From Cladosporium halotolerans (taxonomy: Eukaryota), in NCBI RefSeq assembly GCF_011745625.1, contig NW_027191455.1:620001-684000 (forward strand): 64,000 bases of DNA, given 5' to 3'. Below, in pieces: positions 50,915 through 55,929 of this stretch. Position numbers and translations under genes: made by a program. Under the pieces are notes generated by a model. It saw nothing but the letters and a program-made list of their open reading frames with translations, was not told the DNA's origin and did no database searches. Positions within the stretch are counted from its first letter, which is position 1; every line of letters begins with the position of its first letter.

Positions 50915-52175
50915 GACGGCTGGCTTCCTGACTGGAGGGCGCAACTGCGGTAGAACAATGGGATGTGCCAACGCGATCCAACAAAAGCTACTGGTGCCGC
51001 ATAGCAATGGCGAAGATCCCCAGGCAGACAATCGGTTAGCCTCAACGGAAGTAGAGACGGCAATCCAGAGCTCGTGAGGTCGCGAATCGGATCAGAACAT
51101 CTCAGCCGCCAGACGCGCACAGCGGTGGAGCTGCCTTCTTTCAGCCGCACCGGTCAGTCCACTGTCGTCCAGCGCAGTGTCGTCTGCCGCTGCACTGGCA
51201 AAGTCAATGAGGTGTGAGGAACGAAACGAAAGACCGCCGCGGTCACCACCAACACGTCGAGGACGTGACCAGGCAGGTAAGGGAAGTTATCTTCACGCAT
51301 GCCCGTGCGCGAGCTGGGTCGGCAGGCAGGACAGGGCAGGACGAGGGGCGATGTGAGATGTCTGCAACGCGCTCGTCCCGCCAGCACGCGATGCCGAACA
51401 CGGCCAAGGGCAGCATCCTTCGACTGCAACAGCGCTCGCTTGCTGCGTGTCCAGCTCTGCGGCCGCAGCCCGGTGCCGCGATAGCACGCAGCGCCCGCTC
51501 GCTCGCATGCCTTGCCGTCGTCGGCAGCCTCGGGCGGAATCCTCACCGGTCGCAGTCGGCCAGTCACGACGGCGAGTGCGATTGACAGCACGCCGGACGA
51601 GCTCTCGTTTGCCGCGAAACGCACCGCTGCCCTGCTGCAGATGCCTGCGTCTAAGCGCCGGTGGCGCTGGAGGGGCGTGCCAAGACCTGTTGGACTGCTC
51701 CACCTGCCTCTCTGCCGGTGGCTACTCGAGGAGTTGAACAGAATAGACATTTTCGGCACCATACTTCTACAACGACAGCAGCCAGTGCATCTGGCACTCG
51801 ACGGACAAGTGCTGACGGAGACGCGAATGGCTTTCGCCCTCTGCTCCGTCTCCGCGGACCCTCTGGCCGCAGACTCCATGTGACACCTACTTACTTTGTG
51901 ATGCTACACACCATTGAAGCTCCATCGGCCCGCGGGTGCATGTGCCTGGCGCCGCAGCCTGGCGTGCGCGTAAGGCGGGATGATATATCGCCGAGTAGAG
52001 CTCGAGCGGCCAAGCCATGCGAACCAACGCGAACACAACGCAGCCACCAACTCACGAGGCGCTGAAACAACTCATACAATTTGTGAACGTGGCTCATATA
52101 CTTTGTCTTCGTTACTGCCACCAACTTTGCCTGATTCCTTCCATGCGCCGGCCGGCGACATTTTGCATTCCACCA

Positions 52176-54193
52176 CTAGTAGGTGTACCGGAACTTGTCC
52201 TATTGGAAAACATTAGCAGGAGACACTTTGTCAGGCGGAGCTCGCAGCCTTACGGTAGAATCGACGCCAGGAACGGGCTCGATGATCTTCTCTCCCTTGG
52301 CCTGCTTCTTGTTGCAGAAGAAAAAGTACGTGTCCGTCACCATAACGATCAAAACAATGATCAGGGACCCCGTCATGCAAGCCCAAAGACCCGGCTTATA
52401 ACCCGGCGCATCCTGCTGCCTACATCACCCAAATCGTCAGCCAAAAAAATTCACCTCCCTCACCAGCCACGCAATTTGCAAACCGAAAGACTCACCTAAA
52501 CACCAAACTGCCCGCAATGCCGCCAATGCCACCAAACGCCACGAGCGTCGCGCTGCAGAACGCGCGCTTCCACTGCCCGCGGATGTTGTTCGCCTGCCAG
52601 CTCATCATGTGCGGGATGTTGGAGTTCGCGCCCGCGCACGTGAAGAAAACGCCGGCGTACTGCGACGCGACTCCGGGAGCCCAGCCCATCATCGCCAGCC
52701 CGATGATCGTCAGCACCGCCAGGCTGGCGATGATGGGGCCGCGGATCCGGTACTTGTCCGCCACCCAGGCGGTCGAGAACATGATTATGCCGGCGAAGGC
52801 GTCTGAGAATTATCAAGGTTAGTATAGTATGGGGTGAGCTTTTGTACGGGAGTTGAATGGACTCACATGGTGGCGCGACGAGGCACTGCGCTTCGCCTGT
52901 GGTGAAGCCCATACCGTCTTTCTGTAAGTTCTAGTCAGTCTCGTGGCTTCCGGTCGCGTCCCGAAGAGCGGGCGGACTCTTGATCCGAGAGGAACATACT
53001 GCAAAACGTCAGCGATGCGTCTTCAAAATCAAGGGACGACAAGATCCATACCCAAAATCTGCGGCAAAAAGTACGCCAGCGCGTACGAAACCGTCGTCAG
53101 ACAACAGAAGCAGACCGCGAAACCCCACACCTTCAAATCCAGACCCGGTTTCAAGAACTTGACAAGATTGAACGGCTCGACAGCGACATCCGAGCGATCC
53201 GCATTGACGCGCGCGACGACGAAGTCGACCTCCCGCTTGTTCAGGAACCCCCACGACTTCTCCGGGTTGGCGTCCGGGAACGGCACGAGCATGATGTAGC
53301 CCATGATACCGACGCAAACTGTGATGACGCCTTCGATGATGAAGATCCAGCTGGCGGGGGGCGTTAGTATGCTCGTGGTGGAATCAGGGGTTGGATGATT
53401 CAGACGTACCGCCATCCTCCCAGGCCGGCCAAGCCGTTCATCTGCATCAGGCCGAAGGCGAGGATGCCGCTGAAAGCTGACGCGACGACGCCGAGGAGGT
53501 AGAAGACTGAGTAGCGCTTGCCCATGTCGTAGCGGACGTACCAGGTCGAGAGGAGGTACACGCATCCCTGGTGGAGTCAGCGGTTAGGTCTGCACATATT
53601 CGGAGGTCGTGCAGGCGATGGCAATACTCACAGGGAAGAAACCAGCTTCGAACAAACCCAGGATCACACGGCACGCGGCGAGGGCTCCCCAGTTGTTGGT
53701 GAAGCCCATGCCAATCATCACGGCTCCCCAGCCGATACAGAGACCAGCAAGGAAGTAGCGTGGACCGATCTTGCGAGTGAGGACCGTCGCCGGAGGTTGG
53801 AAAACGATGTATGTGATGAAGAAGACCAGAGTGACGATGGACTGCGGTCGAAGCGTGTCAGTGCGTGCCGGTTGCTCATTTCCCGCTGCGAAAATTACTC
53901 ACATATCTCATTCCCACGGTCAGCTCCAGCTCCGTGTTCATGCCCGCAATAGCAGCATTGCTCAAGTTGGAGCGATCCATGAGCGAGACGCAGTACATGA
54001 CTCCGACGACCGTAACCAGGCGCCTGTCGAGACGGTGGATGATCTTCTTCTGCTCCGCCGGCGTGAAGTAGTTCAGAGCGTCCTCCTCCAACGACCGCTT
54101 CTCGTCGTCGCTCTGCTGCCCGTTCTCGTAGTGAAACACATCCTGCGCCTTGTTGTCGTTGTCCGCAGCGACGTGCGGCTCCATGTTCGTCAT
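52176..54193 (-). CDS. MFS anion:cation symporter (Dal5/Tna1/phthalate-transporter-like); introns 53842-53902, 53568-53631, 53351-53409, 52922-53052 (twin intron), 52803-52866, 52420-52495, 52200-52253
   Basis: KKIIHRLDRRL..DRSNLSNAAIAG; EAGFFPG; GWRWIFIIEG; WQANNIRGQWKRA; C-terminal FRYTY*. Every splice junction was checked for frame. Confidence 0.92.
52922..53052 (-). other. [D1,2] spliceosomal twin intron (stwintron): internal intron 52999-53051 nested between nt 1 and 2 of the external donor
   Basis: Minus strand reads ATT TTG | G [GTATGG..GCTGAC..TTGCAG] TATGTT..ACTGAC..TTACAG | AAA GAC GGT ATG. Confidence 0.85.
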
Positions 54194-55929
54194 GTTGGCG
54201 ACGTTATCTCGCAGCCGCGCAATGCCGGCTCTGTGTCCCAAAGCAGAAGATTCGATTCAGGTAGATAAGGCAGGAGGGGGGCATGGACCAACTCAAGGCC
54301 TGAAGAAGAAAAAGGAAGAAACCGTTGAGGATGGAAAGAACGGACTCCACCCGTTCCCAGACCCGACGTCTTTGTAGAAGACCACGTCCGACCTCCCGCG
54401 GCCTCGAAAGTGAAATGCAAGGCCCTCCGCCTCCATCTAATTGCCTCGGCCTCCCTCCCCATCCCCAGGCCAAAGACCCATATTCCAAGACGCTTCTCCG
54501 CGTAATGCGCTCTTGGCCCTGCGGCGTCCAAGATTTTGCCGAAAGCGATCCGCCGCGCGCGTATCGGGCTTCGACAGGGAATGCAGGTGTCTCTGCGCGG
54601 GAGCGAAGGGTCGCTGCTTACCGTCCCCGCCCAGGCCGCGGCCTGGGGGGGTGGGTGACGAGGAGACGCACGGTTGGGGTGTGGAATTTGGGGGATTTTG
54701 CGGAGGGGGACCCAGTTTCTCCACGTTACATCCTGGTGGCAAGCGGCTTGGCTGCGGGCTTGGTATTTGTGCGAAGGGCGGTAGATTCGGAGACGGTTTG
54801 TCGAAGGTTGTTGGTTTTGGGGGGACGAGAAGAGAACGGAGAGAGAGAGGGCCAAGGGCGCTCGGAAGGGGAAGTTGGACGGTTTTTCTGGTCGCGATGC
54901 CGAATGAACTCTAAAAAGATGCCTCGGGAGGCGTTTCGTGAGGCTCTCGCGGAGGGGGCGTTGTTTGAGTTGGCGGGCTTGAGACAGGATCGCCGCGCAA
55001 CGTGGTTTAGAGTGGAGGCGAACGGGCGCAGACACCTGCAGACGGCGTCGGGGGATTTGCCTCGGTCGGTGTAAGTGGCGGCGGTTGGATCGTCATGTGA
55101 GGTTTTTGGGTTGTCTTGGGATCCACCGGACGACGTTTTGTGTATTCATCCACAGTGCGCCACGAAAGTTTAAGGTGTCCCTGGTTGCTGTTGATTCGCC
55201 CCAATTATCGTATGTCTATTTCGCGGGAGATACTTATACCCGCTTCAGGACCGGAGAAATTTGATTTGCTTGTGGACCAAGCCACCATTGAGACTCACCT
55301 CGGCCGGCGGTGTCGGGCGAGACTACGAGAACACGACTGAGATGCATAGAGCCCTACGCGACGTAAGACGCATCAAGGCGCCATTTTAGTCCGCATCTGT
55401 CTCGCCAGGTGGAGCACCTTGATTGAAGAACCGATCCGAGCACCCTTTTGGTCCGCTCACCTATGAAAGGCAACCCAGGACCTCTCAATGCTCCCTCACG
55501 CTCTCTGGTTGTCATGAATCACAGAACCGGCGGATTGGTAACGGAAATAGATCTTGTTGTGCAATGTTCAATCCAACTAGCGGGATTCAGGTACGAGAAT
55601 CAATGCAGTAAAGATTCGAATGCTTGTTTCATGCGGAGAAGTCGCTGCGGTGCAATGTATCCGCCCCACAAGAGCTTTTGTGGTGAGACGCAGGCGGTGG
55701 AGGCGTGACATCTCTCAGGCATGAACGGCGGCAAACATGCATAGGCCTCGGTCTTGATTCGGCAATAACAAGGCTCGGGCTTGTTTCATTTCAGTGATGA
55801 TGGTTGACATTATTTGATTCCTGTGCTCATCGTGGGGTATCTCAGCTAATTCATCATTCTCTTCATGCTTCGTAAGTCGTGTAGAAACCGCGTTCCAGAC
55901 AGCAATGGAGTGCGCGAGTGCTTGTGCGA

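Follow-up and report, generated by a model that had tools for sequence, protein, structure and literature searches.

Gene structure and the layout of the intervening sequence

On the minus strand of the window (the whole 64-kb stretch of DNA analyzed here) lies a gene whose spliced translation, from an ATG at 54193 to a stop at 52176, is an intact major facilitator (MFS) transporter of 502 aa. Seven joints in cDNA-type contigs divide the gene into eight exons (Table 1). P0002, a protein of 499 aa from a transcript-like 1785-nt contig, is identical to this product at 496/499 positions, the transcript-derived proteins P0003, P0005, and P0008 share 87-88% identity with it, and proteins of the named Dothideomycetes Polychaeton citri and Zymoseptoria brevis share 66-70%. 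Membership in the MFS is indicated by the Pfam family MFS_1 (PF07690), which P0002 matches with an E value of 1.2e-36 and 126.8 bits against a cut-off of 33.4, and the source annotations of relatives read "phthalate transporter-like" or "MFS general substrate transporter." Six of the seven intervening sequences are GT..AG introns of 54-76 nt.

The remaining one, 131 nt long, separates exon 4, which ends in ...CCG CAG ATT TTG with its last G at 53053, from exon 5, which starts with AAA GAC GGT ATG at 52921. A single G (53052) follows the TTG, and behind it stands an inner unit of 53 nt, near in size to the other introns of the gene. If this unit is taken out, G and TATGT together read GTATGT, a canonical donor for an outer unit of 78 nt (G53052 plus 77 nt) that has its own branch element, ACTGAC, and its own CAG acceptor. 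A complete internal U2 intron is therefore found between nucleotide 1 (G) and nucleotide 2 (U) of an external donor, the arrangement of a [D1,2] spliceosomal twin intron (stwintron). This nested layout (G53052, then 53051-52999, then 52998-52922) had been put forward in the initial annotation, and rereading of the sequence bore it out base for base. The internal donor, GTATGG, carries a G at position 6 and in this falls outside the Aspergillus nidulans donor consensus, GURWGY, as given in PMC12403724. When the full [D1,2] layout was written as a regular expression and run on both strands of the 64-kb window, it matched once, exactly at this site, and it had 0 matches in each of 100 first-order Markov simulations of the window.

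Table 1. Features of the transporter gene and of its 131-nt intervening sequence (window coordinates)
Feature	Position	Strand	Basis
MFS transporter gene, ATG to stop	52176..54193	-	8 exons and 7 intervening sequences; joints from cDNA contigs
Exon 4, ending ...AYFLPQIL	53053..53350	-	Sequence and cDNA contigs
Whole [D1,2] twin intron (preferred reading), 131 nt, phase 0, apparent GG..AG	52922..53052	-	Joint in X3 and X15; no joined form in DNA runs X1 and X7
G1 of the split donor of the external intron	53052..53052	-	Sequence; no indel listed at 53051-53053 in X1 and X7
Internal intron, 53 nt	52999..53051	-	Sequence; would be removed separately
Internal donor GTATGG	53051-53046	-	Sequence
Near copy of the spliced exon-exon junction, GATTTTGAAGACG (13/14 positions, one gap)	53018..53030	-	Inside the internal intron; local alignment score 21
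Internal branch element GCTGAC, A at 53009	53013-53008	-	Sequence
Internal acceptor CAG	53001-52999	-	Sequence
External intron remainder, 77 nt, starting TATGTT	52922..52998	-	Sequence
External branch element ACTGAC, A at 52935	52939-52934	-	Sequence
External acceptor CAG	52924-52922	-	Sequence
Exon 5, KDGMGFTTGEAQCLVAPP plus 1 nt	52867..52921	-	Sequence, cDNA contigs, spliced translation
Competing single canonical intron GTATGG...AAAG, 134 nt, in frame	52918..53051	-	Used by the public model; without cDNA support

Transcript and genomic contigs across the site

Contigs of four sequencing runs (X1, X3, X7, and X15) were aligned to positions 52150-54300; assembled contigs of this kind drop rare forms. 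Two of the runs are DNA. X1 contributed a 299-kb contig that is identical to the window and may be its source, so that it is not fully independent of it, and X7 contributed an independent 28.8-kb contig from another organism (organism C) about 2% diverged (44 substitutions and 28 gap letters over 2151 nt). X3 stems from the organism of the window and of X1, in another sample; because its contigs skip all seven intervening sequences, we take them to be cDNA, and they show 0 mismatches over the exons and into the untranslated ends. X15 is a metatranscriptome, with RNA on record, that holds a diverged strain.

In contigs of both X3 (depth 275) and X15 (depth 15), 52921 is followed directly by 53053, and the 131 nt in between are missing. 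Both contain 52919-52921 and are without 53052, and in both the bin 52942-53013 has a depth of 0. Read on the coding strand, the skipped piece has the ends GG..AG (GG..CA with the cut shifted by the one ambiguous base), whereas the remaining six joints in the cDNA contigs are GT..AG. P0002 reads LPQILKDGMGF across the junction, as do the cDNA contigs. A mature junction 53053^52921 with the look of a GG..AG intron is what the initial annotation had predicted, and the use of any other in-frame junction in the mature mRNA, which it had named as evidence against its proposal, is not seen in the X3 and X15 contigs, which list the seven mature joints only and in which rare RNA forms are dropped. Likewise, none of these contigs skips 52999-53051 alone, as the splicing intermediate would.

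Both DNA runs retain the insert. Among the differences listed for X7, those within the insert are one substitution (52936), by which the external ACTGAC becomes ACTAAC, and an 11-nt insertion behind 52957; the insert of X7 may hold further substitutions. In organism C, the external branch motif class is kept while intron length drifts, as expected of a functional intron.

A separate difference between the two RNA-derived sets concerns the last intron (52198-52256), where X15 skips 56 nt with 2 other letters between and X3 skips 54 nt; this is probably strain variation.

Splicing route and alternative explanations

Of the splice models tested, only the one without 52922-53052 leads to the cDNA product, 502 aa with LPQIL-KDGMGF at the junction. 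A single intron of 130 nt (53051-52922) leaves one G behind, shifts the frame, and yields a 439-aa product; retention of the whole intron reads LPQILGMDLVVP and then a stop; and in an intermediate that has lost the internal intron only, translation meets a stop after 28 codons. A further canonical intron, of 134 nt (53051-52918), stays in frame and yields LPQIL-DGMGF, 501 aa. The statement in the initial annotation that the alternatives fail is right for the other routes that it listed, and incomplete in that this in-frame canonical intron was missed.

The nested layout, the three G in the DNA, and the exact mature junction are directly established, and no single canonical intron yields the observed mRNA (130 nt shifts the frame, 134 nt loses a Lys); therefore, the best reading of the 131 nt at 52922-53052 is a [D1,2] twin intron removed in two steps, to which we assign a probability of roughly 85%. 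It is the only route made of canonical reactions. The same interpretation had been offered from the letters of the DNA, and the mature junction, the DNA layout, and the splice-model test now support it. For the accompanying idea that mis-splicing tunes transporter output, the analysis holds nothing in support.

How stwintrons are defined, how they are excised in two steps, and what part intron definition plays in this are described in PMC12403724 and PMC5639578. At the present locus, the following sequence of events would apply: (i) the spliceosome would pair the nearest sites, as under intron definition, and excise the 53-nt internal intron (53051-52999), whereby G53052 would be joined to TATGTT and the canonical donor GTATGT of the 78-nt external intron would arise; and (ii) a canonical reaction via ACTGAC and the CAG at 52922 would then join TTG (53053) to AAA (52921), giving ...LPQIL-KDGMGF... 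in the 502-aa transporter. We infer both this order and the existence of the intermediate; intermediates of [D1,2] stwintrons have been sequenced in other fungi (PMC5639578, PMC5587772). The 3' unit (52999-52922) is itself GT..AG, and if it were removed first, only the Lys-less product could follow.

Removal of the 131 nt in one step, as a non-canonical GG..AG intron whose internal signals are coincidental, would leave the same trace in the contigs, which show the final junction only. We regard this as improbable, since the supposed GG cleavage site has a good donor, GTATGG, itself preceded by a G, one base further downstream, the full nested signal set is present in a layout that occurred in 0/100 simulated windows, and all six other introns of the gene are GT..AG. 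To our knowledge, GG-AG is not an accepted splice-site class. Moreover, similar apparent introns in fungi have repeatedly turned out to be removed in two steps, with sequenced intermediates (PMC5639578, PMC5587772).

The public gene model takes the 134-nt canonical intron. P0141, the NCBI/UniRef model WHR41_01701 of Cladosporium halotolerans, has 501 aa and shares its 90% cluster with P0002, and the window translated with the 134-nt intron equals P0141 letter for letter. It is nevertheless very unlikely that this intron, with its GT..AG ends and intact frame, is the main route. While a relative, L017, is likewise one residue shorter at the site (LPQILKGMGF), X3, X15, and P0002 all carry the AAA codon and are without G53052, the joint 52917->53052 is not among the listed contig joints, and the acceptor AAAG lies 4 nt past the first CAG after the branch element. 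The 134-nt intron may serve a minor isoform at a low level not visible in contigs. As it stands, P0141 is without a Lys that is present in the cDNA; the twin intron seems to have led the annotation astray by one codon, in line with the earlier remark that gene finders misannotate stwintrons. The public model is thereby corrected to a real protein of 502 residues.

We give still less credence to an assembly artefact, in which the true DNA would have two G and an ordinary 130-nt GT..AG intron. Such a single intron would yield the same mRNA, and long-read assemblies can miscount short homopolymers; however, the independently built X1 contig equals the window (with the reservation that X1 may be the window's source), and among the indels listed for the independent X7, which is about 2% diverged, none falls at 53051-53053. 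The finding of only two G at 53051-53053, which the initial annotation had considered as a possible refutation, is contradicted by both DNA runs, where all three G are kept. It is just as implausible that the cDNA contigs derive from a different locus or allele that is without the insert (a paralogue or retrocopy), a reading that has no direct support beyond the fact that contigs carry no locus label, since the X3 pieces agree with this locus at every position of all exons and on into the untranslated ends (0 mismatches), no joined form occurs in DNA runs X1 and X7 at 52150-54300, and identity to the next-closest homologues does not exceed 88%.

Under the preferred two-step reading, the locus provides a natural test of intron definition: a canonical in-frame intron is on offer, and the abundant transcript would take the nested route.

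Relation to known complex introns

Flipphi et al. (2013; Fungal Genet Biol 57:48) are said to have given the first description of the [D1,2] stwintron class. Hundreds of [D1,2] stwintrons have been reported from Xylariales, together with single cases in Aspergillus and in the DHA1 MFS family (PMC12403724, PMC9024468, PMC5639578, PMC5587772), and in Helminthosporium solani a [D1,2] stwintron has an alternative [A2,3] splicing path (PMC5639578). The closest parallels are of three kinds. (i) The lipS stwintrons of Aspergillus nidulans and A. niger, examples of the [D1,2] type in Pezizomycotina (PMC5639578), likewise have a short external intron whose donor is split between G1 and U2 by an internal U2 intron of about 52-53 nt. 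Each of the two introns carries a separate branch element and CAG acceptor, the mRNA mimics removal of a GG..AG intron, and automatic annotation is wrong. The present case differs in that it lies in a phthalate-transporter-like MFS gene of a Cladosporium-type Dothideomycete, has an in-frame canonical competitor, and is documented by its DNA layout and mature junction. (ii) The [D1,2]/[A2,3] stwintron of a DHA1-type MFS efflux pump (PMC5587772) also interrupts a major facilitator gene, and its constituent introns also overlap by one G, whereas the present gene is of another MFS family and its exon 5 starts with AAAGAC, so that there is no [A2,3] route to the same mRNA, as the initial annotation had reasoned from the A at the start of the exon. 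(iii) The sister stwintrons of Hypoxylaceae and Xylariaceae (PMC12403724, PMC9024468, PMC8469720) are of the [D1,2] type as well, stand at positions that are empty in most relatives, and are inserted seamlessly, with no target-site duplication at the borders. In contrast to these, the present intron has no sequence-similar copy within the 64-kb window and does not show the near-terminal inverted repeats (NTIRE-9/10) or terminal symmetry described for the Xylariales sister stwintrons in PMC12403724.

Long animal introns can be removed step by step through recursive (ratchet-point) splicing, whose first reaction restores a 5' splice site. The proposed route resembles this in its stepwise removal and in the restoration of a 5' splice site at the start; it differs in that the donor would be completed by a single upstream intronic G and that both introns are short and fit intron definition. 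PMC5587772 names recursive splicing as a process distinct from stwintrons. As for mobile introns, the present case is like introners and introner-like elements (PMC9860276) in being an intron at a new position in a Dothideomycete lineage; unlike them, it showed no multi-copy family (within the 64-kb window), terminal repeat, target-site duplication, or unusually stable fold. Introner-like elements occur in Mycosphaerellales.

A search of the literature on stwintrons combined with Cladosporium or Dothideomycetes returned no description of this case in main texts. It is well supported that we are dealing with a previously undescribed, RNA-supported [D1,2] stwintron, of a class already well described and not with a new kind of element. 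Its interest lies in adding an RNA-supported [D1,2] twin intron for a Cladosporium-type Dothideomycete, most known cases being from Xylariales and a few model ascomycetes.

The site in relatives

An 82-aa query spanning the junction was compared with 80 metagenome loci. Alignments crossed the site in 71/80 of them, 54 ungapped and 17 gapped, and the other 9 gave no alignment; 15 of the 17 gapped loci have a one-residue deletion, and L018 and L042 have inserts. Only the window's own alignment is broken at the site. All 10 loci that are at least 83% identical in this stretch read straight through it. Eight of these (L017, L021, L022, L053, L059, L063, L074, and L080) are genomic, because the reading continues into the next intron (APPC...), and two (L001 and L016) are cDNA-like. 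In the DNA of the read-through loci, TTG is directly followed by an AAA, AAC, AGC, ATG, or CAG codon; since the TTG of relatives directly meets the next codon, the 131 nt sit seamlessly between TTG and AAA. A further 19 genomic ORF fragments also read through (P0004, P0006, P0007, P0009-P0012, P0122-P0128, P0130-P0132, P0137, and P0139). The comparison of orthologues that had been suggested as a check on the intron state thus shows eight genomic loci and 19 genomic ORFs of close relatives to be intron-free here. As most close relatives have nothing inserted at the site, the locus offers a compact setting in which to ask how a twin intron is born at a new position.

Two genomic fragments are interrupted exactly at the site: P0129 (92% identical), where LPQIL is followed by GMSLRISGI, and P0133 (85% identical), where it is followed by GKPVPYIH... 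Both inserts start with a Gly codon and not with GTN (G+GTATG and G+GTAAG, respectively). P0133 differs from the transcript-derived P0008 at 2/85 residues, and P0008 reads LPQIL-NGGMGF; removal of a segment that starts with G+GT is therefore probable in the P0133/P0008 lineage as well and suggests that a twin intron occupies the position there too. The first insert codons of P0129 are compatible with G+GTATGT, followed by letters like those of the external intron of the window. Judging from these fragments, a twin intron, or a canonical intron shifted by one base, may be position-conserved in the sister lineages of P0129 and P0133.

A tree of exon 4 (99 columns, 44 rows) was poorly resolved. 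The occupied state takes two changes on the best tree and one change in 31% of the bootstrap trees, and a tree uniting the occupied lineages in one clade was not rejected by the AU test (p 0.50), this group having been named after the tree had been seen.

Possible traces of origin

Within the 64-kb window, copies of the inner or outer intron were limited to chance matches of 9-11 nt. The fold of the 131 nt is ordinary (MFE -35.8 kcal/mol; mean of shuffled sequences -36.1; z 0.08), the best near-terminal duplex (-10.7 kcal/mol) was reached by 343/2000 shuffles and is not beyond chance, and neither terminal repeats beyond chance nor a target-site duplication were found at the borders of the insert.

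Two short resemblances to the flanks are present. The internal intron contains GATTTTGAAGACG, the near copy of the spliced exon-exon junction listed in Table 1, whose score of 21 was reached by 40/2000 and 22/1000 shuffles, and when each of the seven introns was compared with its own junction context, p fell below 0.05 for the twin intron only. The second resemblance is GGTATGG, the opening 7 nt of the twin intron (53046-53052), which recurs at 52915-52909, 6 nt into exon 5. The junction copy is suggestive only. Together with the GGTATGG repeat, it would be compatible with break repair in which the flanks served as template for filler DNA; the statistics are modest (p about 0.02-0.04 by shuffles).

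Taken jointly with the occupied relatives, these traces allow a scenario that we consider unlikely: a small Cladosporium-like clade would have acquired the twin intron once, in its ancestor, at a site then free of introns, the intron would have kept its position, and the lineage of the window, P0129, and P0133/P0008 would all carry it today. The internal intron would then still hold a 13-nt copy of the pre-insertion junction (GATTTTG·AAGACG at 53030-53018), next to the GGTATGG repeat. If true, this would be a molecular fossil of templated break repair making an intron, and a twin intron, de novo.

Ordinary introns near the site

In more distant homologues, ordinary introns stand at several positions within about 25 nt of the site. 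In L018 (942-1115), an intron lies in the second Ile codon of LPII, in phase 2, and that of P0134 is apparently in phase 1; P0138 has an intron after ILRD, P0135 in the Gly codon after ILRE, and L042 (1082-1240) after GMG, and P0136 is another distant homologue in the set with ordinary introns nearby. It seems that, in this family, the loop-coding stretch around the site is a hot spot where introns are gained or slide. At the end of one locus, L039 (4846-4974, minus strand), there is a second, inverted partial copy of the exon region; the assembly may have folded back here, or the region may be locally duplicated in inverted orientation.
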